Both the position numbers and the translations under genes were made by a program. The notes beneath the pieces were generated by a model, which was not told where the DNA came from, searched no databases, and saw nothing but the letters and a program-made list of their open reading frames with translations. Below, piece after piece: positions 9,168 to 28,502 of a stretch of 64,000 bases of DNA. Source of the DNA: an uncultured Planctomycetota bacterium (lineage in GTDB: Bacteria; Planctomycetota; Planctomycetia; Isosphaerales; Isosphaeraceae); assembly GCA_963823665.1 (NCBI GenBank), contig CAWGMQ010000008.1, forward strand, positions 2,080,001 to 2,144,000. The letters run 5' to 3'. The first letter of the stretch is position 1. Each line of letters begins with the position of its first letter.

Positions 9168-10088
9168 TCATGAAGTGCTGAGCAGGCTGTCCCAGTCGTG
9201 GATATCCGGGTCAACAATCCGCTCGCCCATGGCCTCGAGCCGCTCGACATCTCGAATGGCCTCGATCGCGGCCAACGTCGCGGGATCCGGTTTTCCGAAG
9301 CGCTTGGACCCCAGACGAACAAGAATCCGCTGTTCGCCCGTGACACGGCCCTCAATCAGGCCCTCGTTGCGCCCTTCGATCAATCCTTCGTTGCGCCCTT
9401 CGATCAATCCTTCGTTGCGCCCTTCCCTCAAAATCGCCTGATAAGTCGTCGATTCCTGCATCTCGTTCACCCCTTCCAGCAACTGCGAGACCAGTTCTTC
9501 TGAGTAGCATAGCCCCATGAGCAAGTACGTGGCCGTCCAGAGTTTCACAGATCGCGGCCGCGGCTCGGTGTTGATCCGCGCCGCCATCCGCTTCACCAAC
9601 CCGGGCAAATCCCCTTCGGTGACATTTGCCAGAGGCGCAAGTGGCAAAAGGTTGACCCCACCGGACAAGTACGGCTCAGGGTCTTCCCCCCACAATCGAA
9701 CGACCCGGTAATTATAACGATTCGTCAGCCATCCGTCTGGCATCTTAATCTCAAAACCGCCGGTCAAGCTCGGCGAGTTCGCCTCTCGCCGCAACAAGAT
9801 AAGCACCGTGAGCACGGGAAGCCGATGCCGATGAAAGAGCGCCGCCTGCCGAAACCACACCGTCTCGGCCAGATCAGTCTGATGGCTCGACTGAAGCTCG
9901 ACATTGACGAGGTACGGCTCCGCCCCACCAACGTGAATGACCTTGTCGGCCGCCGCCGTCAGTGTCGTGACATCCGAATCGATCACCTCAACCGGCCCAG
10001 CCGGCCCGATCCGCAGCCACTCGAGCCACTCAGCGGGCCCGTCCCAGACCAACTCCTTCGTCGCGACATCGAAGCGGTTGTATTCCAC
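9168..10088 (-). CDS. Rpn/YhgA-like PD-(D/E)XK nuclease with DUF4351-like C-terminus
   Basis: FD..TKEL, ADKV, VELQS, ESTTYQAILREG, (EGRNEGLI)x3, KRFG. Confidence 0.8.
   Translation of the reverse strand: MEYNRFDVATKELVWDGPAEWLEWLRIGPAGPVEVIDSDVTTLTAAADKVIHVGGAEPYLVNVELQSSHQTDLAETVWFRQAALFHRHRLPVLTVLILLRREANSPSLTGGFEIKMPDGWLTNRYNYRVVRLWGEDPEPYLSGGVNLLPLAPLANVTEGDLPGLVKRMAARINTEPRPRSVKLWTATYLLMGLCYSEELVSQLLEGVNEMQESTTYQAILREGRNEGLIEGRNEGLIEGRNEGLIEGRVTGEQRILVRLGSKRFGKPDPATLAAIEAIRDVERLEAMGERIVDPDIHDWDSLLSTS
9349..9427 (-). repeat. 24-bp coding tandem repeat (EGRNEGLI x3) inside Rpn
   Basis: CCCTTCGATCAATCCTTCGTTGCG repeated; third copy degenerate. Confidence 0.85.
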
Positions 10089-11669: not shown

Positions 11670-11780
11670 CTTTCCAGAGTTTCGCCGCTCGAGCCTGCGT
11701 ACCCCCAGCCGCTCCGACACCGCCGCCGGATCATCCCAGATCAGCTCCTTGGTCGAGACTTCGCAGCGGTTGAATGCTAC
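11670..11780 (-). pseudogene. Rpn remnant: ~27 N-terminal codons joined directly to the ARAAKLW segment
   Basis: AFNRCEVSTKELIWDDPAAVSERLG matches the start of the 34584 copy; CCAGAGTTTCGCCGCTCGAGCCT matches ~34917-34939. Confidence 0.8.
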
Positions 11781-11839
11781 AGAGAGGTCCCCGAATTCGT
11801 TCGCCCCGAGCTTCGAGAAGATCTCTCTGCAGCGTCGCT

Positions 11840-12733
11840 TCACTTCACCCTGAGCTGAAACCGCTGCTCGCCGATCTGGAATTGCGCCAGCGACTCCACG
11901 GTAATCTGCGGCATCCGCAGCCACAGTCCATTCGGCGTCTTGTGATGCTCGGCGTGCCAGTTTCCTCGAGGCCCGCGGTAAAGCCGCACGTGCCGCAGCT
12001 CGCAGAACGGGTCGTCAGCCCGACAGATCGGGCACGTTGGGTCGGCGCCGATCCAGTACTCATTCTTGACAAGGAGGATCCGGTTTCCGATGTCCTTTCC
12101 GATTAGCTCGGTCACAGCCGGCGGCCGGGTCGGGCTTGCGCCCTCGTCCAGCCCCTGAGTTTGGCCGAAACCCTGCTCGTTTCCGGCATGGTCGATCGTC
12201 GGCCCCGCGTCGACGACTGGTCCCTCGAACCGGTAGCGCCCGTTGCCGACCAGAAACTCCGCCTTCTCGGCGAGAACCGTCCTGCTCACGCGGACGAACA
12301 TCCCGTGCGTGCTCTGGAGGTCCGTGACAACCCAGCGATGCAGCCCGCCGACGACCTGGTGCGTGATCTCAACATGCCGCGCCGACATCCGCCCGTCGAG
12401 CGGAATACAGAAATCCCCTTCGGTTCGTCCGATGATGAATCGATGATCGCGGATGCGGATGATTTCACCATCGGTCTTGCCATCGTCAAACACGGTCAAG
12501 ACGGCAACCGGCGGCCGCGCCGTCGGGTGGAACGGCACGGCCGAACGCACCGCGCCGGGCGATGGCGGCGCCGAGACCGGGGCAGAGGATTCGACCGCGA
12601 CCGGCGGGCCGGGCTGCCGTCCCTTGTGACCCGACAGCAACGCATGTCGGATCTCATCGTCAGTTTCGATCAAGGTGCCGGACCGTTCGACCTGAGGGTT
12701 CGGTTGACCGGGTTCAGTTGGCTGGGACATCAT
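11840..12733 (-). CDS. Double-FHA domain protein (unit A)
   Basis: IGRTEG..MSARH..DLQSTHG; close paralog of 20345..21235; GGAGGT RBS. Confidence 0.85.
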   Translation of the reverse strand: MMSQPTEPGQPNPQVERSGTLIETDDEIRHALLSGHKGRQPGPPVAVESSAPVSAPPSPGAVRSAVPFHPTARPPVAVLTVFDDGKTDGEIIRIRDHRFIIGRTEGDFCIPLDGRMSARHVEITHQVVGGLHRWVVTDLQSTHGMFVRVSRTVLAEKAEFLVGNGRYRFEGPVVDAGPTIDHAGNEQGFGQTQGLDEGASPTRPPAVTELIGKDIGNRILLVKNEYWIGADPTCPICRADDPFCELRHVRLYRGPRGNWHAEHHKTPNGLWLRMPQITVESLAQFQIGEQRFQLRVK

Positions 12734-12804
12734 TCACCTCCTTTCCGCGGGCAATCCACTCCAGCGACAGAATCGTTACACACGCGCCTGCATTCCACCT
12801 GTGT

Positions 12805-15800
12805 TCAGCGGCCAAACTGACCCAGGACCACGCGGAAGCCCAAGTTGCCCCACCGCCAGTCCGGAGCGAGCGCCTCGCCGAACGCCGATCGGCAGTCGCG
12901 GGGCCCGCCGTACCAGCTCCCGCCGCGGAATATCCGGTTCGAACCCCTCGCCGGGCCGGTCGGGTCGTCCGCCGGCGACTGATTGTAATAGCCCGCGCCC
13001 TGCCAATCCCAGCACCATTCCCAGACGTTCCCATGCATGTCGTACAGCCCGAAACCATTCGGCTTTTTCAGGCCCGTCGGGTGCGTTCGCGAATCGGAGT
13101 TACGTTTGAACCACGCATAGTCGTCCAGCTCTCCCGCATCATTACCGAACGAGAAGCGCATCGGAGTGGACGCGATCGCCCGGCAGGCGTATTCCCACTC
13201 CGCCTCCGTCGGCAATCGATACCCCGGCCCGTTCCAGTCCGGAACGCGGATCTCTTTCCCACCGATCTCATAGAACGGCTTCTTACGCTCCTTCTCGCTG
13301 AGCTTGTTGCAGAACTGAGTCGCCTCCAGCCAGGTGACGTTTTCCACCGGATGCCGGTCGGTCGAGTGCCCCGCGACCAAGTCCTTGCCCGAACCATTTG
13401 CTGAGAACGTGCTCGGATTGTTCCCCATCACAGCCTCATATTGCGCCTGGGTGACCTCGCAAACGCCCAGGTAGAACGGTTTGCTGATCCGCACTTTGTG
13501 CTGCAGCTTCTCGGGGGCACTGGAATCCTTGTCGCCGTCGGACGGCCCCATCAAGAATTCACCGGCCGGAATCAGCTTGAGCGTCACGCCGATCGAGTTC
13601 GTGATTGACTCCTGAGTTGAGGGAGTCTTGACCGCGCGGACTGCGTCGGGGCGGCCAGACTGACCCAGAGCCAGACGGAAGCCCACGTCGTAAGTCCGGT
13701 ATTCTGGAACGTGCCAGTTGCGGCTCGCTGACCGGTGTTGGCCGGGATCGCTGAGCCAGCCCCCGCCGCGGAACATTCGGCACTCGCCGTCCCCACCACG
13801 CTCGTGGACCCGGGTGATCGAGGCCCCCGCGGGGCCGGTTGGGTTGTCCGCGGCTGACTGAGTGTAATAGCCCTCGCCGTACCAATCCCAGCACCACTCC
13901 CAGACGTTCCCATGCAGGTCATACAGCCCAAATCCATTCGGCTTTTTCTGGCTCACCTGGTGCGTTCGCAAATCGGAGTTACCCTTGAACCACCCATATT
14001 CGCCCAGCTCCGGCGCATCGTCACCGAATGAGTAGCGCGTCGGGGTCGGCGCGTTCGCCCTGCAGGCGTATTCCCACTCCGCCTCCGTCGGCAAACGATA
14101 GCCCGAGCCCGTTCCAGTCCGGAATCCGGATATCTTTCCCATCGATCTCATAGAACGGCTTCTTACCCTCCTTCTCGCTGAGCTTGTTGCAGAATTTGAC
14201 CGCGTCGAACCAGGAAACTTGCTCAACCGGATACTGGTCGGTCGACTGGCCTGCGACCTCATCCTTGCCTCGACCATTTGCGGAGAAGTAGCTCGGATTG
14301 TTACCCATCACGGCTTTGTACTGCGCCTGGGTCACTTCGTACACGCCCAGGTAGATACGACTGCTGATCCGCACCTTGTGCTGCGGCTTCTCGCTGGGAT
14401 CGGCATCCTTGTCGTCCGTCGGGCGAGCCCATCAGGAATTCGCCGCCAGGAATCAGCTTTAGCGTCATCCCGATCGAGTTTTTGATCGATTGCTGAGATA
14501 GAGCGAGTCTTGACCGCGGGGCCTGCGTCGGAGCGGACGTCTTTCTTCGCCGTCCGGGTTGAATCGGCACCGTCATCTTTCGGAAGTTCGTGGGGCAGTT
14601 TGGTGGAGGCTACAAACCGCACCGTGAACTTCTCTCTACCTGCCGCCTGCACGGTCACCTCGTCGCCGGATATCTCAAGCCCATCCTTCTTGACCATGAT
14701 CTTGTGCTTGCCGGCGGTGACCGTGACCACGGCGGGCTTGCCGCCGCCCGGCCAGGTGATGGCAACCTCCTCGCCGTCGACCAAGACCTCGGCATCCTTC
14801 GGGAGATTCACCAGCTCGATCATCCCGTTCGCGGTCTTCACCCTGATAACCAGCCCCCAAGCGACGACGAAACCGAGCAGCAACAAACCGGCCAAGGCCC
14901 ACCAGGCGCGGGCCCCGAGCCGATTCAGCTTCTCAACCGCAGTCGACCAGAGCGCGAGGTTCCTTCGACTCGCCGGCGGAGTAGCCACCGGAAGCGGTGT
15001 ATCCAGAACCTTGTCGAACAGCGGATCCGTCTCGCGCGAGCTCGACCAGACCCTCCAGGATCGAACCCGGTTGCATGGGCGCCGGCGTCCTCCGCACGGC
15101 CGGCCGCGGTGGCGCCGAGGTCGTGGCGGGACTCGAATGTTTCGCCTCGGGTTGACCCGTCTGAGAGATCTCGGGATCCACGCCTTTCAGCGCCACGCTC
15201 CCCTTCTTGAAAAAAGGCGTCAGCGCCTGGGCCACCTCGCCGGGTGTCTGAAATCGCCGGCCCGGCTCCTTCGCCATCATCTTCGCCACCAACGCGGCCA
15301 GCTCGACCGGGACCTCGGGCCGGACAAGGTTCAGCGGCCCGGCGTCCATCGAGAAGTGGGCCTGGTACACATCCCATAGATGCTCGCCGCGGAATGGCGG
15401 TCCGCCGGTCAGGAGATAGTAAAACGTACAGCCCAGGCTGTAGATATCGGCGCGGATGTCCGCCGACTGGGCGTTGCGAATCTGTTCCGGAGCGATGTAG
15501 TCCGGCGTGCCCAGCATCTGGCCCTCGCGGGTCAGGCCGCCGTCGACCTCGCCCTCGCTGCTCACCTTGGCCAGTCCGAAGTCGAGAACCTTGACGACCG
15601 CTTTCTTCCCCTCAGGCGCGAGGATGAGGTTCGCCGGCTTGATGTCGCGGTGCACCATCCCTCGCTCGTGGGCGTGCTGCAACCCGAGCGCCGCCTGCTG
15701 AATAAAGTAGCAGGCGTGAGCCACCGGCAGCGGCCCCTTGGTCTTGACCATCTTTTGCAGGTCGAGACCCTCGACGTACTCCATCGCCAGCACAAGACCC

Positions 15801-16324
15801 TCGCCGAGCCGCAGGGCCGAATAGGCACCGACGATGTTGGTGTGATGCAGCTTGGCGGCCGACTGCACCTCGCGCAGGAACCGGTCGCGAACACCGGGCC
15901 GCTCGACCAGGTTCGCGCCGACAACCTTGAGTACCTCCAGACGCCCCATGAGCTTGTTGCGGGCAAGGTACACCACCCCCATCCCGCCTCGCCCTAATTC
16001 GCGCAGGATCTCGTAGTCGGCAAGGTCCGCCAGCCCCGGAGGCAGCGTGTCCGCCGGCGGCGGTGCAGTGGAGACGGCCGCCCCAACGCCGGCCGGAGAT
16101 CCGCCGAATTGCAAATTCTCCGTGGCCGAGATCCCCGGCTCTCCCTGCGCACCGCGAAGCCGCCCCAGAAAGCTGTCGGACGACATCTCGGCAACGCGGC
16201 GCTGACACTCCGAGCACGAGCTCAAGTGCGTGTTCACCGATTCTGCCGAGGCCTCATCAAGCTTGCCCAGACTGTAGGCCTGCAACGTCGGATCATTCGG
16301 GTGGACGGCGGCTGTGGCGCCCAT
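12805..16324 (-). CDS. Receptor kinase A: HxxxCxxC zinc finger, Ser/Thr kinase, TM, PEGA-like, two FGE-sulfatase (CLec) domains; about four frameshifts (~15030, ~14505, ~14420, ~14105)
   Basis: HLSSCSEC, GRGGMG, HRDIKPAN, DFG; twice YRLPTEAEWEYACRA..GNVWEWC..RGG.W..GFR; pieces lie in ORFs 14933, 14332, 14301, 14021 and 12805. Confidence 0.85.
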
Positions 16325-16480
16325 GGCAGGATCTCCGGAGGCGGAACAACTTCGACTTCGATCGCTCAATCACTAATCAAGAAAGGCCGCATCAGCGCGA
16401 AACCTGCCGCGAAAACAACAGAATATCCCGAGAAACGTTCGAGCTCTACCCGTAACTGCTTGAAATCTCACGACTTGGCC
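16325..16480 (-). promoter_or_regulatory. Conserved kinase leader, copy A
   Basis: Near-identical to 19460-19614 and 25062-25216. Confidence 0.75.
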
Positions 16481-16566
16481 TGACGATGAATTGTGCGCCA
16501 GCGCGACGAACCAGAATACGCTCGTCGCCGCCCGACGCTCGGCAGCCCTCGGCAGGCCCTGGCGGC

Positions 16567-16658
16567 TCACGGTGCGCTGAGCAGATCCTGCCAGCCATGG
16601 AGTTGCCGGAGTGCTCGACCGGGGCATCCGGCTGCTCGGGCTTCGGTTGTTCGGGCAC
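16567..16658 (-). pseudogene. Deletion scar: first 18 codons of the FHA gene fused to the last ~12 codons of Rpn
   Basis: MPEQPKPEQPDAPVEHSG matches the start of the 21235 gene; TCACGGT..GAGCAGATCCT.CCAGCCATGGAG matches 25303-25338. Confidence 0.8.
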
Positions 16659-16691
16659 GCTGCGCCGCCTTCCCGGGACAGGAAACTCGCC

Positions 16692-17216
16692 TCAGGACCT
16701 GGCCGCTTTACGACCCACGGCACGCGGTGATCGTTGGGCGCGGGTCTCGTGTTCCGCGCCCAATGTCGACTTTCGCTCCGCGAAAGTTCCTCCTCGTTGG
16801 GCGCGGGTCTCCCGACCCCGCCCGGAGTTCGACCGAAGGTCTCCCTGGTTCGCCGGCTTCTCGTTGCCAGGAGTCTCGGTCGGACACGACATCCCGACCA
16901 ATTCGAGCAGCCCGTTCGGATTCTGCCGGTAAACCTGGATCAGCCGAAGCACCGCCTGCGACGGTTTCCGGTTGCCTTGTTCCCAGCTCTGAACGGTCTT
17001 GGTCGACACGTTGAGCAACAGTGCGAAAACTGCCTGCGACATTCCACTCTCGTGGCGGAGCCTGATTAGCTCCGACGCATCGACCTCCGGCGGCCGGTCA
17101 GGCAGTTCGAGGGTCGTGGTCTTCAATGTAATCTCGCCCTTTGCATGGCGGATCGCTTCCTCGAGGCCCTTCCGAATCTGTGCTGCAACCGGAAGTCGCT
17201 GACGTTCATCTTTCAC
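16692..17216 (-). CDS. HigA/XRE-type HTH antitoxin-like protein (unit B); the ORF runs on through a REP pair
   Basis: QIRKGLEEAIR, MSQAVFALLLNVSTKTVQSWEQGNRKPS. Confidence 0.75.
   Translation of the reverse strand: MKDERQRLPVAAQIRKGLEEAIRHAKGEITLKTTTLELPDRPPEVDASELIRLRHESGMSQAVFALLLNVSTKTVQSWEQGNRKPSQAVLRLIQVYRQNPNGLLELVGMSCPTETPGNEKPANQGDLRSNSGRGRETRAQRGGTFAERKSTLGAEHETRAQRSPRAVGRKAARS
16733..16845. repeat. REP-like element pair
   Basis: GTTGGGCGCGGGTCTC..CCGCGCCCAA and GTTGGGCGCGGGTCTCCCGACCCCGCCC..GACCGAAGGTCTCC; same family as 1531-1655. Confidence 0.75.
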
Positions 17217-17320
17217 GTTCGCTTTGATCCGCTTCGGTGGGCACAACCACTTGTTCAGTTTCTGAACGACCCTGTGAACCTTAACCGACCGAATCTTTTC
17301 GACGATTGGCCCTAGCCACA

Positions 17321-19459
17321 TCAGAACGGCGCCGGCCCCTTCAACTGCAACAATTTGACCTCGATCTTGCGAATCTGAAGGGTCCCGCCCTTCGCAAGCC
17401 GAATCGCAATCTGACCCTGTTTCAGCATCGATCGCGTGTCCTCAAACGCGGACACCTCGCGGCCATTGACGCGCATCCGGAAAACGTTTCCCTCCGCGAT
17501 GATCTCTACCTTTTGCCACTTACCGTTGGGAAGACCGGGGAGCCCCGGCGCGGTGATTTCTCGGAGACCGTCCATGGTAGTCTGACTCCTGTCAGTCGCC
17601 CCCCCTCCGAACTTGAGTCTGTACTCGCCCAACAAGAGTCTTTCGCCGTCGAATGTCGATCCCCCCGCACAAAACCTGTAATACTTCACGGAACCCAGGG
17701 AATGGAACGCTCGAACAAGAAATATGTTATCCAAGCTACCGCTCACACGAACCTCCATGCGCAGGTGGAAGTTTTCGTAATCGAACCGTTCTGTGGCAAT
17801 CGTGGAAGCGTCAGTCGAACCCGAGCCTTGGATCGAACCATCATCCGCCACCGTCCAGTCGTTTTCGTCGCCAACGGGAAAAGTCCAGCCTGAGAGATCC
17901 CTCCCGTTGAACAATTTAACGAAACCAGGCTCCCCCGTCTCATGGTCCGCCTCGAATGACTTGCCATCAGGCGCGCTGAACGTCGCCACGTCCTTGTCTG
18001 TTTTGATGTAAACAACGACGCCCGCTGCGATGAAACTGAACAGCGACGCTGCGGCAGCAACCGCCGGCCACCGCCACCGCGGCCGAAAACGATTTGCCTG
18101 CACGGTGGTAGGCAAGGGCTCCGTCTCGTTGAACTCGACCAGACCATCCCACATGGGATCCCGGTGCGCCGCTTGCGTGGGGATCGCTTTCGCCGGCGCA
18201 GAAGCAGGAACGGGAGCAACATCCGCACTCGTCGTGCGGTGTGCCGACGCGCAATCTATGCCAGCCTGCGCCGGCCTTGCTTTCGACCGACCTGCCTGCG
18301 AGATATTGTGGCCAGATCCGCTCGATGCCGGGCTCCCCTTCCTGAAGAACGGCCCCAGCGCCTCCGCGACCTCCTTCGGCTCCTGAAACCGTCGCCCCAC
18401 GTCCTTCGCCAGCATCTTCGCAACCAGCGCCGCCAACTCCGCCGGAACCTCCGGCCGAACAAAATTCAGCGGATCCGCATCCCGCGACATGTGCGCCTGG
18501 TACATGTCATACAACGAGCTGGCCTGAACCGGCGGTCGACCCGTGAGGAGATGATAGAGCGTGCCGCCCAAGCAATAGATATCAGCCCGGATGTCGGCGG
18601 TCGTCGCATCAACAATCTGCTCCGGAGCAATGTAGTCAGGCGTGCCGAGCGCTTGCCCTTCCGACGTCAGCCGCAAGTCAACTTTCTCTTCACGCGTCAC
18701 GCGGGCCAGACCGAAGTCGAGGATCTTGACGGTCGACTTGTTCTTCTTATACGAGAGCATCAAGTTGCCGGGCTTCATATCCCGGTGAACCAAACCCTCC
18801 TCGTGAGCATGCTGAAGGCCCAAGGCCGCTTGGTGCGCATAGAAGCACGCATGGGCGACCGGCAACGCTCCCTTCGCCTTTACCATTCGCGATAGATCCA
18901 ATCCCTCGACGTATTCCATCGCAAGGACGAAGCTCTCACCAATCCGCGTCGCGTGATAAGCCGTCACAATGTTGGGATGGCGAAGCTTCGCGACAGCCCG
19001 GATCTCTCGCAGGAACCGCTCAAGCACACCGGGCCGTTCCATGATGTGCCGGCCCATCACCTTGAGCACCTCGTCGCGACCCATCAGCCGGTTATGAGCC
19101 AGGTACACCACCCCCATGCCGCCGCGGCCAAGCTCCCGCTTGATCTCATAGTCAGCGTGGTCAGCCAGACCAGGCGGCAACGTCTCAGCCGGCGGCGGCA
19201 CGACCGCGACAGCCGGCCGTTGGCCCAGCAGCGATGCACCAAACTGCGACTTGTCCGTGGCCGACATCCCCGGGCCAACGCGCGCCTCGCGAAGCCGTCC
19301 CAGAAAACTGTCGGACGACATCTCCGCAACCCGGCACTGACACTCCGAGCACGAGCTCAGATGCTGATTCACCGATTCAGCCGAAGCGTCATCGAGCTTG
19401 CCCAGACTGTAGGCCGGCAAAGTCGGATCATTCGGGTGGACGGCGTCTGTGGCGCCCAT
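17321..19459 (-). CDS. Receptor kinase B: zinc finger, Ser/Thr kinase, TM, DUF1080 (3-keto-disaccharide hydrolase-like)
   Basis: HLSSCSEC, HRDMKPGN; LFNGRDLSGW..YENFHLRME..GQIAI..IRKIEVK. Confidence 0.9.
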   Translation of the reverse strand: MGATDAVHPNDPTLPAYSLGKLDDASAESVNQHLSSCSECQCRVAEMSSDSFLGRLREARVGPGMSATDKSQFGASLLGQRPAVAVVPPPAETLPPGLADHADYEIKRELGRGGMGVVYLAHNRLMGRDEVLKVMGRHIMERPGVLERFLREIRAVAKLRHPNIVTAYHATRIGESFVLAMEYVEGLDLSRMVKAKGALPVAHACFYAHQAALGLQHAHEEGLVHRDMKPGNLMLSYKKNKSTVKILDFGLARVTREEKVDLRLTSEGQALGTPDYIAPEQIVDATTADIRADIYCLGGTLYHLLTGRPPVQASSLYDMYQAHMSRDADPLNFVRPEVPAELAALVAKMLAKDVGRRFQEPKEVAEALGPFFRKGSPASSGSGHNISQAGRSKARPAQAGIDCASAHRTTSADVAPVPASAPAKAIPTQAAHRDPMWDGLVEFNETEPLPTTVQANRFRPRWRWPAVAAAASLFSFIAAGVVVYIKTDKDVATFSAPDGKSFEADHETGEPGFVKLFNGRDLSGWTFPVGDENDWTVADDGSIQGSGSTDASTIATERFDYENFHLRMEVRVSGSLDNIFLVRAFHSLGSVKYYRFCAGGSTFDGERLLLGEYRLKFGGGATDRSQTTMDGLREITAPGLPGLPNGKWQKVEIIAEGNVFRMRVNGREVSAFEDTRSMLKQGQIAIRLAKGGTLQIRKIEVKLLQLKGPAPF

Positions 19460-19614
19460 GGCAGGATCTCCGGAGGTTTAACAACTTCGACGTCGATCGC
19501 TCAATCACTAATCAAGAAAGGCCGCACCAGCGCGAAACCTGCCGCGAAAACAAAAGAATATCTCGAGAATCGTCCAAGCTCTACCCGTAACTGTTTGAAA
19601 TTTCACGAGTTGGC
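19460..19614 (-). promoter_or_regulatory. Conserved kinase leader, copy B
   Basis: Near-identical to copies A and C. Confidence 0.75.
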
Positions 19615-19715
19615 CCAATGGACGATTTTGCGCCCAGGCGATGGAAGCGACTACATTCCACTCGATCTGGTGCATCCCAATCACCAGCGGCTTCGGGGGC
19701 CCGTCGGCGATCCAT

Positions 19716-20284
19716 TCACGAACCGTTAAGCAGGTCGTTCCAGTCGAGGACATCAGGGTCGAGGACTCGCTCACCGATGGCCTCGAGACGGTCGATGTCC
19801 TTGATCGCCTCGAGCGCGCTGACGGTTGTTGCGTCAGGCTCTCCGAATCGCTTGGTCCCCTGACGAATCAAGAACCGTCGCGCCTCCTCCAACCGTCCAT
19901 CATTGATGATTTTTCGATAGGTCGTCGACTCGTGCATCGTCTGAACCCCCCAAGAACTGAAAATGTAAGCTCGTCGGGAAAGCGCAGCCCCATCAACGAA
20001 TACGTCGCGGTCCAGAGCGTGGCGGACCTGGATCCCGGCTCGCCATTGATGCGTTCCGCCATTCGCCGCACAAGCCTTGGCAAGTCACCCTCCGGCACGT
20101 CGGTCAATGCTGCCAGCGGCACCAGCCCGACCCCGGCCGTCAGGAAAAATGGGGGCAAGTTCGTGATATCCGAATCGATCACCTCAATCGGCCCAGCGGG
20201 CCCGATCCGCAGCCCCTCCAGCCACTCCGTGGGCCCATCCCAGATCAGCTCCTTGGTCGAGATGTCGAAGCGGTCGAATTCCAC
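19716..20284 (-). pseudogene. Rpn copy with the nuclease core deleted plus a frameshift; C-terminal 73-codon ORF (19716..19937) intact
   Basis: ..VIDSDIT jumps to FLTAGVGLVPLA; 3' part near-identical to 25303-25740. Confidence 0.85.
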
Positions 20285-20344
20285 GATGTGATTTCCAGTT
20301 AATGCGCGCCGCCATCGTGATCCATAACGTCTTTGCCCCGCGGT

Positions 20345-21235
20345 TCATTTCACCTTGAGCTGAAACTGTTGCTCGCCGATCTGAAACCGGACTGGTGATT
20401 CCACGATAATCTGCGGCACTCGCAGCCATAGTCCGTTCGGCGTCTTGTGGTGCTCGGCATGCCAGCTTCCTCGCGGTCGGCGGTAAAGCCGAACGTGCCT
20501 CGGCTCGCAAAACGGATCATCCGCCCTGCAGATCGGACACGACGGGTCCGACCCAATCCAGTATTCACTCTTGACGAGGAGCATCCGGTTGCCGATCTCC
20601 GAGCCAACGAGCTCAGTGACGGCTGGCGAACGGACGGCACTGGCGCCGTCATCCCAGCCACGAGTCCCGCTGAACTCCGGTGTCCCGAGCGAGTTGTCGA
20701 TCGTTGGCCCGGCGTCGGCCACGGGCGCGTCGAACCAGTATCGTCCGTTCCCAACCAAGAACTCGGCCCTATCCGCCAGAATGGTCCGGGTGACGCGCAC
20801 AAACAGCCCATGCGTGCTCTGGAGATCAGTGATCACCCAGCGGTGCAGCCCCCCGACAACTTGGTGCGTGATCTCCACATGCCGCGCCGACATCCGCCCA
20901 TCGAGCGGTATGCAGAAATCCCCTTCGGTGCGCCCGATGATGAACCGATGGTCGCGAATGCGAATGATTTCACCATCGGTCTTGCCATCGTCAAACACCG
21001 TCAGCACAGCAACCGGCGGCCGCGCCGTGGGCCGAAACGGAACAGCAGAGCGCACCGAAGCCTGCGGACGCGTGGACGCCGGGGCAGGGGACTGACCACC
21101 CGCAGGTGGCGGCCCCGGCGGCTCGCCCTTGTGCTGCGACAACAGCACCTGGCGAATCTCCTCGTCGGTCTCGATCAAAGTGCCGGAGTGCTCGACCGGC
21201 GGATCCGGCTGCTCGGGCTTCGGTGGTTGGGGCAT
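20345..21235 (-). CDS. Double-FHA domain protein (unit C)
   Basis: Close paralog of 11840..12733. Confidence 0.85.
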   Translation of the reverse strand: MPQPPKPEQPDPPVEHSGTLIETDEEIRQVLLSQHKGEPPGPPPAGGQSPAPASTRPQASVRSAVPFRPTARPPVAVLTVFDDGKTDGEIIRIRDHRFIIGRTEGDFCIPLDGRMSARHVEITHQVVGGLHRWVITDLQSTHGLFVRVTRTILADRAEFLVGNGRYWFDAPVADAGPTIDNSLGTPEFSGTRGWDDGASAVRSPAVTELVGSEIGNRMLLVKSEYWIGSDPSCPICRADDPFCEPRHVRLYRRPRGSWHAEHHKTPNGLWLRVPQIIVESPVRFQIGEQQFQLKVK

Positions 21236-21268
21236 ATTTCCCTTCTTTCCCGCGACAGGAGACTCCCC

Positions 21269-21793
21269 TCAGGACCTCGTTGCTTTACGACCCACCGCAC
21301 GCGGTGATCGCTGGGCGCGGACCTCGTGTTCCGCGCCCAATGTCGACTTTCGCTCCGCGAAAGTTCCTCCTCGTTGGGCGCGGGCCTCGCGACCCCGCCC
21401 GGAGTTCGACCGAAAGTCTCCCCGGTTCGCCGTCTTCTCGTTGCCAGGAGTCTCGATTGGACACGACATCCCGACCAATTCGAGCAGCCCGTTCGGATTC
21501 TGCCAGTAAACCTGGATCAGCCGGAGCGCCGCCTGCGACGGTTTCCGGTTACCTTGTTCCCAGCTCTGAACGGTCTTGGTCGACACGTTCAGCACCCGCG
21601 CAAAGCCAGCCTGGGACATCCCACTACTAAGTCGGAGCTCCGTCAGTTGCGAGGCACCAATCGAGGGCGGTGGTTCGGGCATTTGGAGGGTCGTCGTCTT
21701 CAACGTGATCTCACCCTGCGCGAAACGAATCGCTTCCTCTAGACCCTTTCGGATTTGCGCTGCAACGGGAATTCGCTTACCTATCAACCTCAT
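21269..21793 (-). CDS. HigA/XRE-type HTH antitoxin-like protein (unit C); the ORF runs on through a REP pair
   Basis: MSQAGFARVLNVSTKTVQSWEQGNRKPS; paralog of 16692..17216. Confidence 0.75.
   Translation of the reverse strand: MRLIGKRIPVAAQIRKGLEEAIRFAQGEITLKTTTLQMPEPPPSIGASQLTELRLSSGMSQAGFARVLNVSTKTVQSWEQGNRKPSQAALRLIQVYWQNPNGLLELVGMSCPIETPGNEKTANRGDFRSNSGRGREARAQRGGTFAERKSTLGAEHEVRAQRSPRAVGRKATRS
21312..21421. repeat. REP-like element pair
   Basis: Near-identical to 16733-16845. Confidence 0.75.
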
Positions 21794-21886
21794 GTATGCT
21801 TATCCCTTTCTGATTGGTCCTGAGTGGCGCTCAAGAAGCTCGACAAGCTTTCGATAAGACTTTTTGTCGGCGGCCGTCTTGTTATC
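21777..21886 (-). pseudogene. Possible C-terminal remnant of a RelE/HigB-type toxin
   Basis: Reads DNKTAADKKSYRKLVELLE.. and its stop overlaps the HTH start, as in toxin-antitoxin operons. Confidence 0.4.
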
Positions 21887-21925
21887 TACCGGGCAACCTG
21901 CGATACACGCCGATCCACTAATCGA

Positions 21926-24900
21926 TCAGTCCGGTAGCTCCTCAATCAGAATCTCCTGGAACTGAATCACCGTCTTGCCCAGGACGAGCAACGAAATCGC
22001 ACCCGAGCCATACCACCAAGACGCGTCCCGATAATCGGCGACCGTTTTTCCATTTATCGACGTCGTGACACGATCCCGGATTGCGGTGATCTCGGCAGTA
22101 TTCCAAGAATTCACCGGAACGGGAGTTGGCTCAGCTCGTGCATCCCAAGCGATATGGTGGAATCGCTGGTTTCTCATTTTCGTGATACTTCCGGCGGGTA
22201 TTTGCCACTGATCCGTTCTGGGCCACGAGTTTAGGTTAACCAGATAGCCGCTTCTGTTGTCGCCACTGCCGGAAAATCGGACTTCGATCAAACTATTGCC
22301 TCCTTGTTGATGCCGAAACTTTGTCCGCAACCGGTAATTTGTGAAGTTTCGACTATGCGTAACGAGGTTGCCCGCGCCCGCTTCGCCAGCACCACGACCT
22401 TCGAGCAACCCGTCCACGACTTTCCACTCGCTTCCATTGGTGAGAACGTCCTTCCAGCCATCGAGGTTCTTGCCGTTGAACAGGGCGGTAAACTCGCCGT
22501 TCCTCGACAGAACACGCGGCGATACCGAACCGCCAAGTTCTATTGCGCCGCCACCTGCATTCCTCGCGACGCGAAATCCCTGCTGGGGAACGTGAATACC
22601 CGGATCCTTATGGAAGTTTGGCCAGCTCCCTCGAAAAAGCGAGCTAAACAACATCCGGGTGTTCCACGTGTACGCACAACCGCGACTAACGCGGCCTATT
22701 CCCGTTACCGGACCGGTGGGATCCTTCACAGGCCCCCCGTCGTCTCGGTATTTGCCATACCAATCCCAGCACCACTCAAACACGTTCCCCGTCATGTCGT
22801 ATAATCCGTAGCGGTTCGGCTTCAACTCACCAACTGGGTGGGTCTGCTTACCGCTGTTCGTCCCAGTCCACGCGAATAGATCGACGCGCTCCCAGTCATC
22901 ACCGTGGGGATAAATCGTTTGGGTGCCGCCTCGGCATGCGTATTCCCACTCTGCCTCGGTCGGCAGGCGGTAACCATCGCCACCGATGATAGACACCTCG
23001 TTACGGTCGATTCTGTAGAAAGGCGGGCGGCCCTCCTTTTCGCTCAGTCGGTTGCAGAACTCGACCGCTTCGTACCACGACACGGAATCAACCGGAAGAT
23101 TTCGCTGACCGCGAAACTTGCTGGGTTCGCTGCCCAAGACCAGTTGGTACTCTTCCTGGGTAACCTCGTATGCACCAATATAGAATGGCTTGGTGATCTG
23201 TACCGCGTGAGCCGGACGAGCACGCTCAGTCTCAGAGAGGTGCATTTTGGACACCTCGGGATTGTCCGGGGCACCCATCAAGAACCCACCGGCCGGGATG
23301 TGTTTCAGCTTCATGCCAATCGAGTTCGTCAAAGTCAGTGGCAGCGCGGCCGGCGCCTGCCCATGTCCTGCGTCCCGCAAAGGTTCCAGCCGGACTACGA
23401 TCTCTTCCGACCCTTCCACGGCAACCGTCACAGATTCTCCGTACGTTTTAAACCCTTCCTTCTTCACCTCGATCCTGCGCTCACCTGGAAGAGCCCGAAT
23501 CACGATAGGTTTGCCACCGCCAGGCCATGAGACCGTAACCTTGTTTCCGTCGACATAGACGTCCGCACCGTCTGGCACATTTTCTAGTACGATCACTCCA
23601 TCGGGCGTTCCCACGCGAATCACGCTGGCAACCCACCAACCGGCGAAGCCCAAGACGACTGCCGCGATGCACACGGCCGGCCAGAGCCACATCGGCCGAC
23701 GATTCGGTTCGGCGCGAGCGGCTTTGAGTATGGTAGCTGCGTCAGCCCCCACGTTAGCGAGGCTGTCCCACCGCGCGTCGGCCTGCGCCCGCTCGGCCGG
23801 CTTTCCTAGGTCTACTCCCGTGGGTTCGCTCGCGGCGGTCGTTTTCGACGTAGGGCCGGCACGTCGAGCTCCATCGCCAACTGCGCGCTGTTCGATCAAC
23901 GAAACCTCGCCAACCGCGGTGTGCGCGTTTCGAAACACCCTTCTTGAAAAACGGCAGAAGCGCGTCCGCCACTTCCTTCGGCGTCTGAAACCGCCGCCCC
24001 GGATCCTTCGCCAGCATCTTCGCAACCAGCGCCGCCAACTCCGCCGGCACCTCGGGCCGAACAAAATTCAGCGGATCCGCATCCCGCGACATGTGCGCCT
24101 GGTACATGTCATACAGCGAGCTGGCCTGGAACGGTGGTCGACCTGTGAGCAGATGGTACAGGGTGGCGCCGAAGCTATAGATATCAGCCCGGATGTCAGC
24201 GGTCGTCGCATCAACAATCTGCTCCGGAGCAATGTAGTCAGGCGTGCCCAGCGCCTGCCCCTCCGAGGTCAGCCGCAAATCAACTTTCTCTTCACGCGTC
24301 ACGCGGGCCAGGCCGAAATCGAGGATCTTGACGGTCGACTTGTTCTTCTTATACGAGAGCATCAAGTTGCCGGGCTTTATATCCCGGTGAACCAAACCCT
24401 CCTCGTGCGCATGCTGAATGCCCAAGGCCGCCTGGTGTGCGAAGAAGCACGCATGGGCGACAGGCAACGCTCCCTTTGCCTTCACCATTCGCGACAGATC
24501 CAATCCTTCAACGTACTCCATCGCAAGGACGAAGCTCTCACCAATGCGCGTCGCGTGATAAGCCGTCACAATGTTGGGATGGCGAAGCTTCGCGACAGCC
24601 CGGATCTCTCGCAGGAACCGCTCAAGCACACCGGGCCGTTCCATGATGTGCCGGCCCATCACCTTGAGCACCTCGTCACGACCCATCAGCCGGTTATGAG
24701 CCAGGTACACCACCCCCATGCCGCCGCGGCCAAGCTCCCGCTTGATCTCATAGTCAGCGTGGTCAGCCAGTCCAGGCGGCAACGTCTCAGCCGGCGGCGG
24801 CGCGACCGCGACAGCCGGCCGTTGGCCCAGCAGCGATGCACCAAACTGCGACTTGTCGGTGGCCGACATCTCCGGACCAACGCGCGCCTCGCGAAGCCGT

Positions 24901-25061
24901 CCCAGAAAACTGTCGGACGACATCTCCGCAACCCGGCACTGACACTCCGAGCACGAGCTCAAATGCTGGTTCACCGATCCAGCCGAAGCGTCATCGAGCT
25001 TGCCCAGACTGTAGGCCTGCAAAGTCGGATCATTCGGGTGGACGGCGTCTGTGGCGCCCAT
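21926..25061 (-). CDS. Receptor kinase C: zinc finger, Ser/Thr kinase, TM, PEGA-like, FGE-sulfatase, DUF1080; frameshift near 23935
   Basis: ORFs 23754..25061 and 21926..24064; YRLPTEAEWEYACRG; LFNGKNLDGW. Confidence 0.9.
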
Positions 25062-25216
25062 GGCAGGATCTCCGGAGTGGTAACAACTTCAACGTCGATC
25101 GCTAAATCACTAATCAAGAAAGGCCGCACCAGCGCGAAACCTGCCGCGAAAACAAAAGAATATCCCGAAAAACATTCGAGCTCTACCCGTAACTGCTTGA
25201 AATTTCACGACTTGGC
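25062..25216 (-). promoter_or_regulatory. Conserved kinase leader, copy C
   Basis: Near-identical to copies A and B. Confidence 0.75.
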
Positions 25217-25302
25217 TTGACAATTAACTGTGCGCCAACGAGCCGAACCACCACACACTCGTCGCCGTCGAAAGCTCGGTAGCGCTGCCCCGCGCCCGCG
25301 AC

Positions 25303-26151
25303 TCACGGTCCCTGGAGCAGATCCTCCCAGCCATGGAGGTCAGGATCGACGATTCGCTCACCGATGGCCTCGAGACGGTCAATGTCTCTGATCGCCTCGA
25401 GTGCGCTCACGGTCGTGGCATCAGGCTCTCGAAATCGCTTGGTCCCTTGACGAATCAGGAACCGCCGTGCCTCCTCCAATCGTCCATCGTTGATGATTTT
25501 TCGATAGGTCGTCGACTCGTGCATCGTCTGAACCCCCTCAAGAAGTGAAAATGTAAGCTCGTCGGGAAAGCGCAGCCCCATCAACAAATACGTCGCGGTC
25601 CAGAGCCTGGCGGCCCTCGGTCGCGGCTCGCCATTGATGCGTGCCGCCATTCGCTGCACAAGCCCCGGCAAGTCCGCTTCCCCCACGTCGGTCAATGGGG
25701 CCAAGGGCACCAGCCCGACTCCAGCCGTCAGATAGGCCTCGGGATCTTCCTTCCACAGCCGCAGCACACGATAATTGTACCGATTCGTAAGCCAGCCGTC
25801 TGGAAGCTCTCGCTCGTATCCACCCGTCAAACTCGGCGAGTTGGCCTCCTTGCACAGCAACACCAACACGGTGAGCACAGGCAGATCATGGCGATAGTCA
25901 AGGGCGACCTGGCGGAACCAGAGCGTTCTTTGCAGATTCGTCTCGTGATAGGAATGGAGCTCGATGTTGACCAGATAGGGCTCGGACCCTCCGATCCTGA
26001 GCACCTTGTCCGCCGCAGCCGTCAGCGCGGTGATGTCGGAGTCGATCACCTCGACGAGCGCGGCAGAGCCAATGCCGAACCGTGCAAGCCAGGCCGCGGG
26101 GTCGTCCCACACCAGTTCTTTGGCCGAGACGTCGAATCGGTTGAACTCCAT
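25303..26151 (-). CDS. Rpn/YhgA-like nuclease (intact)
   Basis: FDVSAKELVWDDP, ADKV, NIELHS, MHESTTY; paralog of 9168 and 34584. Confidence 0.8.
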   Translation of the reverse strand: MEFNRFDVSAKELVWDDPAAWLARFGIGSAALVEVIDSDITALTAAADKVLRIGGSEPYLVNIELHSYHETNLQRTLWFRQVALDYRHDLPVLTVLVLLCKEANSPSLTGGYERELPDGWLTNRYNYRVLRLWKEDPEAYLTAGVGLVPLAPLTDVGEADLPGLVQRMAARINGEPRPRAARLWTATYLLMGLRFPDELTFSLLEGVQTMHESTTYRKIINDGRLEEARRFLIRQGTKRFREPDATTVSALEAIRDIDRLEAIGERIVDPDLHGWEDLLQGP

Positions 26152-26165
26152 GAAGCGACTCCAGT

Positions 26166-28502
26166 CTACCCTTTTCTAGCCTTGCCCCGACCGAGCACAA
26201 CAATCGTCGCCGCGGCACCCACAGCCGCGTGCGCGAGCACGATCATCCAAGCAGGAAACCACTCCCCGCCCTCTCGTCCGAGCGATTTCAAATATCCGTC
26301 CGGCAATAAGCGCTGGATCGCCTCCTGCCCCCAGTAGACCGTCACAAACGCCTTCGCGATCCAGAGCGCAATGCCGCTCAGTGGAGCGCTTACCCCGGCC
26401 AGGATGATCTGTGGGATCACGGCGACCGGGACCAGCGCGATCGCCACCTCCTCGGATCGAGCCACGGCCGAGATGAGCAAGCCGACCGTCGTCCCGACCA
26501 CCGCGAGCGCCGCAAGCGTGGCCAACTGAAGTAGCACGTTACCCTCCGGCCCACACCACATCCTCACAATCGTGAACAGCAGCGTCGCCTGCACAATTCC
26601 GATCACGGCAAGCACGAAGAATTTGGATGCGAAGTAACCCCCGACGCGCAGGTTGAAGTCGCGCTCACGCAAGTAGATCACCCGCTCCTTCACCAGTTCC
26701 TTCGCCGCCGTGTTGCACCCAAACCAGAGACACGACACGGTCAGCAGCAACAGCAAATTGACCGATCGCAGCGCACGTTCATGCAATTGGGACACATCGC
26801 TGAGATTCCCGTAAACCAATCCCAGCAAGAGCGCCACCAGGACGCTCTGCCCCAGCATCACCCCGAGCGCTTGCCGGTCGCCTCGCCAGATCGACACATA
26901 CCGCCGCGTCAGAACCATCGCCTGCCGCAAGCTGCTCGCGCCGCGGCCGCCCGGGCGAACAAGCGGCGTCGTGCCGTCGCGCTCACTCAGCGTCTCGGAC
27001 GGCAGTCGATCGATGACGTACTGTTTGAAAAGAGGGTTCGCTCGAAACCGATTGTGCCAATCCTCGGGTGTTTTTTGGGCGAGCTGCCGGTACACATCGC
27101 CAAGCCGCGAGATCTGGAAATACGCCTTCGCCTCATCCGGCGTGCCGACGAACGCCAGCCGCCCGCCCTCCGTGAGGATGACCACGAGGTGGCACGTCGC
27201 TTCGACATTGGCCAGGCTGTGCGTGATGCAGACAACGGTCTTTCCCCCCTCGGCGACCTGCCGGAACAACTCCATCACTTCCCTGTCCGTCTGTTCGTCA
27301 AGCCCTGAAGTCACCTCGTCCAGGAACAACAGGCTCGGGCGCGACACCAGTTCGTTCGCCAAGCTCGCACGCTTCACTTGGCCCCCGCTCAGGTGGCGGA
27401 TCAGCATTTTCCTCCGGCTGGAGAGCCCGACGACATCCAGAATATCGGAGACGCTCGACTCGACCTCGTCGCGCGACAGATCCTCAGGCAGCCGCAGCTC
27501 GGCCGTGTAGCGCAGCGCCTGCCCAACCGCGAGCGAGTCATGCAGAACGTCCTTCTGCGGCACGACGGCGATGTCTTCCTTGAGGGCCTCAAAGTGTGTG
27601 TACAAGTCCTGGCCGTTGAGTGTCAACATCCCGGCATCGGGCGGGTTTCGACCGCTCATGATGGTGAGCAGCGTCGACTTCCCCGACCCGCTCGGGCCCA
27701 GCACGCAAACGAATTCCTTGGGGCGGATCACCAGGCTGATCTGATCGAGCAGCTTCAGCGGCCGGCCGGTGTTCCTGTCTTGAACGACGCGACTCACACC
27801 GCGCGCAGCAAGCTCGACGTTATTCGACCGCGACCGGCTGACCAGCCTCGACCCGTCGAATCGAAGTGAGAACGGCCCGATATCGATGTTGTCGCCGGGA
27901 TTGAGCAAGGTTGGGCCGGTGAGCCGGCGGCCGTTGACAAACGTTCCGTTCGGGCTTCCCAGGTCGGCCAGAGCAACCCGCTGCCCATCCACGGCCAATC
28001 GGGCATGTGCCCGAGAGACGTGCGGGTGGTCGAGATGAAACTGGACGGTCGTGGCATCGCGGCCGATGACACCTCCCTTTCCCAGCTCGAACTGCTGAGC
28101 CCGGGCCGTGCCGCGCAGCAAGGCGATATGCCGCGAATCGGCGAGGACGGTCGCATCGAATTGCCGGGCCGGCGGCGTGCTGGTTCGATCCGGCTCGATC
28201 GAGAGGACCACGATACTGGGGCCAGTAAAGCCCAGGCGAACCCGATCGCCGGCCTTGATCGGCGATGACGTATCGAGTGGGTTGCCGTTCAAGAGAGTCT
28301 TGTTGCTCTGGCTCAAATGGACCAGAACGAACCCCGTCGCCGTTGGTTCGATCCGGGCATGAAAACCGGAGACTTTCGGAAATGCGATCGCATCGATAGC
28401 TACCTCGCACCCGGCGTCGCGGCCCAGGCGGATGTGCGAGCCCGTGGTCTCGACGATTTGTGTCCGCCCATCAGGCTGATCCACCTGCAGCCGAGCTTGC
28501 AT
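26166..28502 (-). CDS. FHA-FHA-ABC ATPase-permease (Rv1747-like half transporter)
   Basis: Two FHA domains; GPSGSGKS, LSGGQ, LFLDE; C-terminal TM bundle. Confidence 0.9.
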   Translation of the reverse strand: MQARLQVDQPDGRTQIVETTGSHIRLGRDAGCEVAIDAIAFPKVSGFHARIEPTATGFVLVHLSQSNKTLLNGNPLDTSSPIKAGDRVRLGFTGPSIVVLSIEPDRTSTPPARQFDATVLADSRHIALLRGTARAQQFELGKGGVIGRDATTVQFHLDHPHVSRAHARLAVDGQRVALADLGSPNGTFVNGRRLTGPTLLNPGDNIDIGPFSLRFDGSRLVSRSRSNNVELAARGVSRVVQDRNTGRPLKLLDQISLVIRPKEFVCVLGPSGSGKSTLLTIMSGRNPPDAGMLTLNGQDLYTHFEALKEDIAVVPQKDVLHDSLAVGQALRYTAELRLPEDLSRDEVESSVSDILDVVGLSSRRKMLIRHLSGGQVKRASLANELVSRPSLLFLDEVTSGLDEQTDREVMELFRQVAEGGKTVVCITHSLANVEATCHLVVILTEGGRLAFVGTPDEAKAYFQISRLGDVYRQLAQKTPEDWHNRFRANPLFKQYVIDRLPSETLSERDGTTPLVRPGGRGASSLRQAMVLTRRYVSIWRGDRQALGVMLGQSVLVALLLGLVYGNLSDVSQLHERALRSVNLLLLLTVSCLWFGCNTAAKELVKERVIYLRERDFNLRVGGYFASKFFVLAVIGIVQATLLFTIVRMWCGPEGNVLLQLATLAALAVVGTTVGLLISAVARSEEVAIALVPVAVIPQIILAGVSAPLSGIALWIAKAFVTVYWGQEAIQRLLPDGYLKSLGREGGEWFPAWMIVLAHAAVGAAATIVVLGRGKARKG

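Follow-up and report, generated by a model that had tools for sequence, protein, structure and literature searches.

Several related membrane kinases in a row, each carrying a different outer domain, raise the question of what they report to and how such a set arises. We analysed a locus of this kind in a window of 64,000 nt (G000:C8:2080001-2144000) from an uncultured planctomycete of the Isosphaeraceae, whose assembly comprises 16.46 Mb in 12 contigs and is 91.9% complete. A preliminary description of the sequence had reported a triplicated cassette of constant-kinase, variable-ectodomain receptors on the minus strand and had proposed that duplication followed by ectodomain replacement expands a repertoire feeding one signalling output, a putative set that it likened to immune-receptor clusters. 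The results showed that this array is part of a larger planctomycete locus that comprises a sigma factor of the extracytoplasmic function (ECF) type, one to five zinc-finger membrane Ser/Thr kinases, a double-FHA protein, a secreted helical protein and an M48 peptidase. We consider it probable (about 0.62) that four kinases form a tandem array here behind one ECF sigma factor, that their copy number and outer domains have come to differ from those of a sister species by crossovers, and that several predicted periplasmic sensors converge on this one sigma factor. The sister genome used for comparison (G001) belongs to the same genus and another species, and was assembled separately.

Architecture of the kinase array

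Along the minus strand, the locus runs from an Rpn-like gene through the sigma gene, a leader, the gene of a 299-aa protein, kinase D and an FHA-FHA-ABC exporter to units C, B and A; 3' of unit A lie a 27-codon Rpn stub, a 1.6-kb gap, a further Rpn-like gene, the predicted secreted protein and the peptidase (Table 1). Self-comparison and translated searches reproduced the unit order and the parts retained in each unit. Unit C is complete (Rpn-like gene, leader, kinase, helix-turn-helix (HTH) gene, repeat pair and double FHA), unit B keeps an Rpn remnant, leader, kinase, HTH gene, repeat pair and FHA stub, and unit A consists of about 12 terminal Rpn codons fused to an FHA stub, a leader, a kinase, a double-FHA gene and a 27-codon Rpn 5' stub. 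The count of three holds for these units, but a fourth kinase (D), a fourth leader and the sigma gene lie outside the region first described. Every unit keeps its leader, as had been stated, and its ribosome site and kinase catalytic motifs as well. The ectodomain differs from unit to unit: PEGA-like, FGE and FGE in A, PF06439 (3-keto-disaccharide hydrolase) in B, and PEGA, FGE and PF06439 in C. The secretin-N-like repeats of kinase D are named by likeness to the STN match of a related locus (L039).

All four kinases carry the zinc motif HxxxCxxC, the catalytic motifs and one transmembrane (TM) helix each, and HxxxCxxC was invariant among 51 aligned kinases. Calling the kinase constant suits B and C, which are 94.6% identical in DNA, but not A, which is only 73% like B/C. 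Likewise, kinase B had rightly been called full-length, whereas the frame is broken four times in A and once in C, in each case behind the catalytic domain. These breaks in A and C are probably assembly errors. All six frame breaks of the region, that of CopA included, shift the frame in the same way; four of the six align as one extra base against intact homologues, the other two being seen from the frames only, and the sister genome has comparable single-base breaks in other genes. The broken part of kinase A contains no in-frame stop and gave a dN/dS of 0.37 over 355 codons against the intact homologue in L040. Together, the common direction, the missing stop and this dN/dS make an assembly error likely for kinase A.

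Misassembly of the units themselves, which the preliminary description had named as a danger, is unlikely. A long-read assembler might have multiplied or scrambled a single kinase unit, and both the single-base frame errors and the fact that no listed contig spans the whole stretch would fit this. However, the copies differ by 5-30% with dN/dS near 0.1, and the sister genome has the same junctions: it shares the block of HTH gene, FHA stub, Rpn stub, leader and kinase A at 92.7% identity with one gap. Independent short contigs also match unit-specific junctions exactly, since short-read contig pieces from the runs of two studies matched the unit B/C junctions at 19636-19903, 25147-25375 and 24877-25098 with zero mismatches, none of them spanning the region. 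An assembly artefact is therefore largely refuted, and we regard it as highly improbable.

The order of the locus recurs in records of the Isosphaeraceae and Gemmataceae. Among 30 loci anchored on close sigma factors, each surveyed within its fetched flank, ten had at least two kinases, and a kinase lay downstream of the sigma gene in 24; here, one gene stands between the sigma gene and kinase D. The secreted gene and M48 closed 9 of 14 FHA-anchored loci, and the secreted family was present in 84 of the 86 genomes of the family. At the best matches to the secreted family (20 loci, some overlapping the earlier ones), five had at least two close kinases and five a single distant kinase in front. 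A complete isolate chromosome (L055) carries the sigma gene, a pair of intact kinases that differ in their ectodomains, an FHA gene, the secreted gene and M48, with no Rpn.

Copy number and ectodomain exchange between sister species

The locus of the sister genome is syntenic from CopA to M48 and differs in the order around the exporter. It holds five kinases, against four here, so that the copy-number variation proposed earlier was found. Kinase A is 93.6% identical to its G001 orthologue up to nucleotide 1119, after which about 1.5 kb are unrelated before 91% identity returns over the last FGE. In a sliding profile per 150 nt, leader and kinase lay at 86-97%, the 1.5 kb at a background of 32-69%, and the last FGE with the FHA gene at 84-98%, while the exporter (ABC) gene, taken as control, was steady at 78-95%. 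In place of the PEGA-FGE of A, the orthologue carries PF06439 in an intact frame of 1110 aa. The TM-PEGA-FGE1 part of A is 87% identical to L040 over 1076 nt, and the kinases of these two are only 75% alike. Kinase C and the G001 kinase at the same position are 90% identical in the kinase and do not align afterwards; for the last domain of C, the counterpart at 90% identity belongs to a G001 kinase in a different position. Kinase D lacks one PEGA-like module (about 240 nt) of its orthologue. These cases of A, D and C indicate that the ectodomain changed at a fixed position of the locus, and we regard ectodomain exchange and copy-number change between the species as well supported.

The kinase parts of B and C are closer to each other than either is to any G001 copy, and nothing aligns beyond the kinase. 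Kinases A and D are old lineages common to both genomes. The earlier idea of duplication followed by ectodomain replacement therefore holds in part, and homogenisation between old paralogues fits some pairs equally well. Taken to its end, such homogenisation would mean that the ectodomains of old paralogous receptors were fixed long ago, that gene conversion keeps the kinase halves matched to one sigma factor, and that the repertoire is stable. A kinase pair in L039 (98.6% identical in the kinase, 76% in the linker) and the 1.8-kb tract at 90% that B and C share over the Rpn 3' half, leader and kinase agree with this, as do sister kinases within a locus: for 23 of the 52 kinases of multi-kinase loci the nearest kinase lay in the same locus, where about 1.4 were expected. 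Gene conversion of this kind is nonetheless improbable for the locus as a whole, as the replaced segment of A has orthologous sequence of 90% or more on both sides, a whole module sets D apart from its orthologue, and the last domain of C has its counterpart elsewhere in the sister locus.

Signs of exchange between kinase and ectodomain were also seen among relatives. The FGE and kinase trees of 18 FGE-bearing genes were incongruent, as the preliminary description had expected, and rejected each other (AU p 9e-6 and 2e-57); they are unconstrained best trees with some weak nodes, and conflicts at 90-100% support exist. We then compared 71 kinases from 39 loci, which were chosen by likeness to this region and whose pairs are not independent. 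Among 41 pairs at or above 84% identity, 30 lost alignment directly after the kinase, 15 without a later alignment of 60 nt, and in most of the 16 pairs shown identity dropped within the first 40 nt behind the kinase end. The 60 post-kinase frames matched PF06439, FGE, C-type lectin, WD40, leucine-rich repeat (LRR), laminin B, VHL, STN, DUF4159 and other models, and 13 matched none; a WD40 ectodomain occurs in G001 kinase Y and some relatives and in none of the four window kinases. The dN/dS was 0.08-0.13 for the kinases and 0.11, 0.35, 0.37 and 0.73 for the ectodomains. The two sister species display how new receptor architectures may originate, with a crossover in the conserved kinase, an abrupt junction, and a sigma stump and candidate promoter taken along.

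A diversity-generating retroelement (DGR) was rejected as the diversifier. None of the 22 reverse transcriptase matches of the genome lies in the window, and no near-identical copy (template repeat) of the two FGE C-termini that were searched was found. Seven of these 22 places have identical scores and several stand in close pairs; they are probably group II introns.

The sigma factor, its candidate promoter and the proposed signalling

The leader consists of the decayed end of a sigma gene (QAKS*NFKQLRVE against QAKSRILKRLREE) and, behind it, the spacer that relatives have between sigma and kinase. Because this stump and spacer are kept, the likely ancestor of each unit is a sigma-kinase-FHA block from which the sigma gene was lost. 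Two boxes lie at a fixed distance in the spacer (GRCAKRT, 13 nt, GGCCTTTC). With at most two mismatches, this motif occurred 5' of 40 of 66 kinases and 1 of 26 sigma genes and in 0 of 660 shuffles, counts to which shared descent adds. Four of the seven exact matches in the genome are in this locus, one is before a paralogous kinase and two are elsewhere; a reversed control gave 0. The motif is likely a sigma-dependent promoter; the preliminary description had recognised neither it nor the sigma origin of the leader. Four loci that overlap others (L045, L054, L022 and L023) were left out of the kinase counts.

The two exact matches elsewhere (C10:358031 and C10:2460179; L135, L137) precede, by eye, a transposase-like and a hydrolase-like open reading frame (ORF) and may be regulon members or chance. 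An RNA hairpin or terminator in the leader was rejected by eye, as changes in the first box are uncompensated in the second. Scans for sigma-70 promoters and terminators stayed near shuffle level (3 against 4.8, and 24 against 16.8 ± 4.0). At several kinases (L057, L058, L059, L053), another conserved upstream sequence with CTCTGTG repeats stands in place of the two-box leader.

The sigma factor, which the preliminary description had overlooked, is likely the shared output of the kinases. Across 31 sequences its acidic motif has an invariant Asp49 and a nearly invariant Glu46 (L081 was left out of this alignment for its stop codons). Loss of the acidic motif marks the phospho-activated groups ECF43 and ECF59 (PMC8103513, PMC8999054); the window sigma factor has EADD rather than a DAED replaced by uncharged Thr/Ser. 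Because EADD is kept, the switch likely differs from that of ECF43, and the sigma factor likely needs an inhibitor. The kinase zinc finger is the sole candidate for this role. A profile search matched it to ChrR (3e-7), DdvA and the RslA-type chain 3hug_B (1.5e-4), with PF13490 weak and NF052375 and TIGR02451 below cut-off; by these profiles, it is homologous to anti-sigma domains of the ChrR/DdvA/RslA type.

Homologous crossovers in the conserved kinase and in the flanking Rpn-like genes likely multiply the units and join kinases to new halves made up of linker, membrane helix and ectodomain. A possible course of signalling can be drawn from these parts. The zinc finger would hold the sigma factor at the membrane. 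Binding of a ligand by the lectin-fold or repeat modules (PF06439, FGE, C-type lectin, WD40, LRR) would dimerise and activate the kinase, and phosphorylation would free the sigma factor, with conserved N-terminal Thr/Ser residues as candidate sites. With several inhibitors for one sigma factor, a single sensor could fire only if phosphorylation blocked recapture, for which the invariant Thr4/Ser7 are candidates. Phosphothreonine docking might recruit the double-FHA protein and the FHA-ABC exporter, as in PknF-Rv1747, and the sigma factor would transcribe from the motif before each kinase, and hence the downstream FHA, secreted and M48 genes. The locus offers candidates for the promoter motif and for the anti-sigma domain, and the cultured isolate L055 has a version with two kinases, which makes the idea of many sensors on one sigma factor directly testable.

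The stimulus is most likely a glycan or another cell-envelope polymer. The same sugar-binding folds could report oligosaccharides for uptake or degradation, with no role in conflict or at the envelope. PF06439 and lectin folds dominate the ectodomains and planctomycetes degrade polysaccharides, both of which count for nutrient sensing; but the scan of the locus genes showed no glycoside hydrolase or uptake gene, the kinases have an FHA protein, an exporter, a secreted protein and a peptidase as their conserved partners, and LRR and WD40 modules occur too. A nutrient-sensing cluster is in our view rather unlikely. This alternative is about the stimulus and can go together with the swapping mechanism. 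A farther-reaching reading, which we consider doubtful, would make the locus a counterpart of plant receptor-kinase clusters: a strain-variable anti-sigma/kinase array whose lectin, LRR and WD40 ectodomains are swapped at a fixed junction under selection by phages, predators or neighbours, acting through one sigma factor, with Rpn-like nucleases driving the crossovers. If the ligands were indeed invader surfaces, this would be a recombination-based receptor repertoire without a retroelement.

Several observations weigh against the four-kinase array acting through one sigma factor. Among the 30 sigma-anchored loci, 14 have one kinase and six none. Only B and D are intact, two of the four kinases (A and C) being broken as assembled; the four breaks within about 950 nt of kinase A exceed the background of neighbouring genes, and the contigs of four runs gave no matching piece over them. 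Eleven of the 41 kinase pairs continue past the kinase end, and several of the pairs with a break regain similarity at the membrane helix, the linker alone diverging. Not every break is therefore a swap, and fast linker evolution explains several pairs; orthologue pairs that keep their ectodomain also exist (D, L046/L079). In none of the ectodomain comparisons run did dN/dS exceed 1, so diversifying selection is not supported. Three other ECF sigma factors, 62-71% identical to this one, could use the same motif, and the genome has at least 155 kinase matches (150 of 626 candidates scored), with several other tandem groups.

These points bear on the main rival explanation, ordinary birth-and-death turnover in a kinase- and repeat-rich 16-Mb genome, with near-neutral mosaics and with A and C as decaying pseudogenes. 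The abundance of kinases (at least 150 matches and several tandem groups) agrees with turnover, as do the fragments of toxin, FHA and Rpn genes, the broken frames of A and C and the lost zinc ligand of M48. Expansion of planctomycete kinases by duplication and recombination, with similar architectures arising repeatedly, has already been published (PMC11032199). Against it stand the six breaks in one direction, CopA being broken likewise, and the broken part of kinase A with no in-frame stop and the dN/dS given above; leader, ribosome site and catalytic motifs remain in every unit, and the swapped G001 orthologue of A has an intact frame. We regard turnover as unlikely, though the strongest of the alternatives, and prefer the four-kinase array; the sister genome offers direct evidence that sequence was exchanged with conserved stretches on both sides.

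Accessory genes, known systems and neighbouring features

The Rpn genes had been named without a model match: three copies gave no Pfam or NCBIfam Rpn match and only DUF4351, one at cut-off. They are Rpn-like on other evidence. In the Atlas, their neighbours by features (at 0.97) bear the names Rpn family and DUF2887/DUF4351, all four window copies that have a 3' part show the sequence signature of a G-rich site with an internal ATG, and stand-alone RpnS-type ORFs of 73-81 aa occur here and in G001, intact in the unit B remnant and in three G001 remnants. The first 136 nt of the unit B remnant are 86% identical to the 9168 copy and the rest 86-89% to the unit C copy; such a chimera has the footprint expected of unequal crossover between flanking copies. 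All five full Rpn-like copies (at or above 60%) of the genome lie in two arrays. Rpn was rejected as a dedicated part of the system and taken as accessory, as arrays were found in only 3 of 9 Rpn-anchored loci elsewhere and L055 is without Rpn. A transposase role finds no support in the Rpn paper, in the part covered; no search of element ends was made. RpnA promotes recombination in E. coli (PMC5350276), and by analogy one may speculate that the Rpn-like genes actively promote crossovers here.

The decay of accessory genes by deletion is real but selective, since toxin parts were lost and antitoxin-type parts kept. The HTH protein is the partner of a RelE toxin; this toxin is intact in L040, L077 and L156 and survives as 24 terminal codons in unit C, and none was found before the HTH gene of unit B. 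What had been called a REP pair is present as a 63-nt-spaced pair of a dispersed repeat, with at least 53 matches in the genome (best 40 of 247 candidate places scored). PADLOC gave generic HTH matches only for the 8 proteins submitted, and no CBASS or CRISPR gene was found among the locus genes scanned.

Of the kinase matches in the genome, at least ten reach 68% identity to kinase B; four of them belong to this locus, three lie at C8:1.17-1.18 Mb and three in other places. A second array of the same subfamily lies at C8:1166000-1185000 (L027, L028), in the order Rpn-like, ECF, kinase-FGE, Rpn-like, kinase-PEGA-PF06439, double FHA, secreted gene, M48, divergent FHA gene and third kinase.

The preliminary description knew of no described system with this architecture. 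The block of ECF sigma factor and zinc-finger kinase is described, whereas the array, its motif and its swapping had no description in the literature searched, which did not cover the primary papers on planctomycete ECF-kinase groups. In the planctomycete group ECF62, a zinc-finger kinase with a single membrane pass usually stands at +1; contexts average 1.27 kinases, and the promoter motif is described as not conserved (PMC7826278). As in ECF62, and also ECF59, ECF61 and ECF217, an ECF factor without a separate anti-sigma gene is followed here by a single-pass zinc-finger Ser/Thr kinase. WD40 ectodomains, known from the ECF62 subgroups s1 and s2, occur in some relatives and in none of the four window kinases. 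The locus departs from ECF62 in that it can hold as many as five kinases with a conserved two-box motif before them, in the lectin folds of its ectodomains and their exchange, and in a conserved FHA-secreted-M48 tail. By its gene features it may be called ECF62-like; TIGR02984 (Planctomycetaceae subfamily 1), a model not established as equal to ECF62, scored 33.5 on the sigma factor against a cut-off of 183.75. Kinase-linked ECF groups had no characterised member in the literature covered, and planctomycetes carry hundreds of kinases.

Other known systems share some features. The ECF43 pairs EcfP/PknT and EcfK/PknS also have a sigma factor controlled by an adjoining membrane kinase (PMC8999054, PMC8103513), but their sigma factors lack the acidic DAED motif, need phosphorylation there and have one kinase each. 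The ZAS sensors ChrR, RslA and Myxococcus DdvA-DdvS have a homologous N-terminal zinc domain, and DdvA, which governs a defence island, also shares the membrane helix and a sensor in the periplasm (PMC11506125); here a kinase stands between zinc domain and membrane, and several sensors would serve one sigma factor. The gene-within-gene toxin-antitoxins Rpn/RpnS likewise have a ribosome site and start inside the gene for a small C-terminal protein, small copies that stand alone, a DUF4351 tail and arrays formed by tandem duplication rather than transposition (bioRxiv 10.1101/2023.05.02.539157; PMC5350276), whereas the genes here miss Rpn models, flank kinase units and include a likely crossover chimera, their nuclease role being putative. 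In M. tuberculosis PknF-Rv1747, a kinase likewise adjoins an FHA-FHA-ABC exporter (PMC3138270), but no sigma factor, array or variable ectodomain belongs to it. DGR-diversified FGE/C-type-lectin sensors of multicellular bacteria also combine FGE and lectin folds as proposed variable sensors with domain shuffling (PMC8195603, PMC10907252); here whole modules would recombine, and the sensors lie outside the membrane helix.

Table 1. Features of the locus, in window coordinates, from the upstream to the downstream flank.
Feature	Position	Strand	Remark
Rpn-like gene, DUF4351 tail, upstream flank	34584..35468	-	not at this place in G001
ECF sigma factor, 193 aa	33990..34571	-	acidic EADD kept in region 2.2; N-terminal Thr4/Ser7 invariant; G001 copy 94% identical
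Leader D, two-box motif 32850-32878	32828..32905	-	5' of secreted gene and kinase D
299-aa protein, no known family	31884..32783	-	only here and in G001 among fetched loci; N-terminus signal-peptide-like (by eye)
Kinase D, intact: zinc finger, kinase, one TM, secretin-N-like repeats, PF06439	28765..31635	-	
FHA-FHA-ABC exporter, Rv1747-type architecture	26166..28502	-	
Unit C Rpn-like gene; internal ribosome site and ATG at 25524, RpnS-type 73-aa ORF	25303..26151	-	
Leader C: decayed ECF-gene 3' end, two-box motif 25118-25146, ribosome site	25062..25215	-	
Kinase C: zinc finger, kinase, TM, PEGA, FGE, PF06439; frame broken once, near 23940	21926..25061	-	
RelE-type toxin, last 24 codons	21815..21886	-	50% to intact L040 gene, E 0.004
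Unit C HTH antitoxin-type gene, runs into repeat pair 21308-21410	21269..21793	-	
Double-FHA protein, intact, no TM (unit C)	20345..21235	-	
Unit B Rpn-like remnant, chimeric; intact RpnS-type ORF from 19937	19716..20296	-	
Leader B, motif 19516-19544	19460..19613	-	
Kinase B, intact, 712 aa: zinc finger, kinase, TM, PF06439	17321..19459	-	
Unit B HTH antitoxin-type gene, repeat pair 16731-16818	16692..17222	-	
FHA 5' stub fused to last ~12 Rpn-like codons	16567..16658	-	same junction in G001
Leader A, motif 16381-16409	16325..16478	-	
Kinase A: zinc finger, kinase, TM, PEGA-like, FGE, FGE; breaks near 15040, 14505, 14418, 14106	12805..16324	-	
Double-FHA protein, intact (unit A)	11840..12733	-	77% aa to unit C copy
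Rpn-like 5' stub, 27 codons	11700..11780	-	84% to 34584 copy
Rpn-like gene, downstream flank, internal ribosome site and ATG at 9461	9168..10088	-	
Predicted secreted all-helical protein, planctomycete family without Pfam, conserved locus member	8078..9067	-	
M48 peptidase with membrane anchor; another residue for the first His of HEXXH, as in G001	6947..8059	-	

The fold model of the secreted protein consists of long helices (pLDDT 79.7, pTM 0.59); it had no Foldseek match, and its best VIA hit (Z 8.7) is a generic helical bundle and uninformative. M48 reads NEIAH here (TEIAH in G001, NEIAH in L045) against HEIAH in most relatives, and may be inactive in this lineage. Many relatives have a divergent FHA/ABC or kinase gene after M48. 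In the window, the stretch 1715-6854 holds a divergent FHA-FHA gene, an unknown gene and a kinase (3335-5236) on the plus strand and a third, distant double-FHA gene (5964-6854) on the minus strand. Within the non-coding gap at 10100-11700, positions 11217-11606 are 95% identical to G000:C2:213083-213473, perhaps a small mobile element, and related sequence sits behind another FHA copy in G001. The CopA-type ATPase at 35538-38050, split by one extra base near 36548, also lies 5' of the sigma gene in G001, G008 and L076. A separate PF07638 (ECF43-type) sigma factor with a TPR kinase lies on the plus strand at 57455-60545. Short tandem repeats occur at 1531-1669 (about 70 nt) and 42818-42976 (about 93 nt), the first of which resembles the repeat pair behind the HTH genes.

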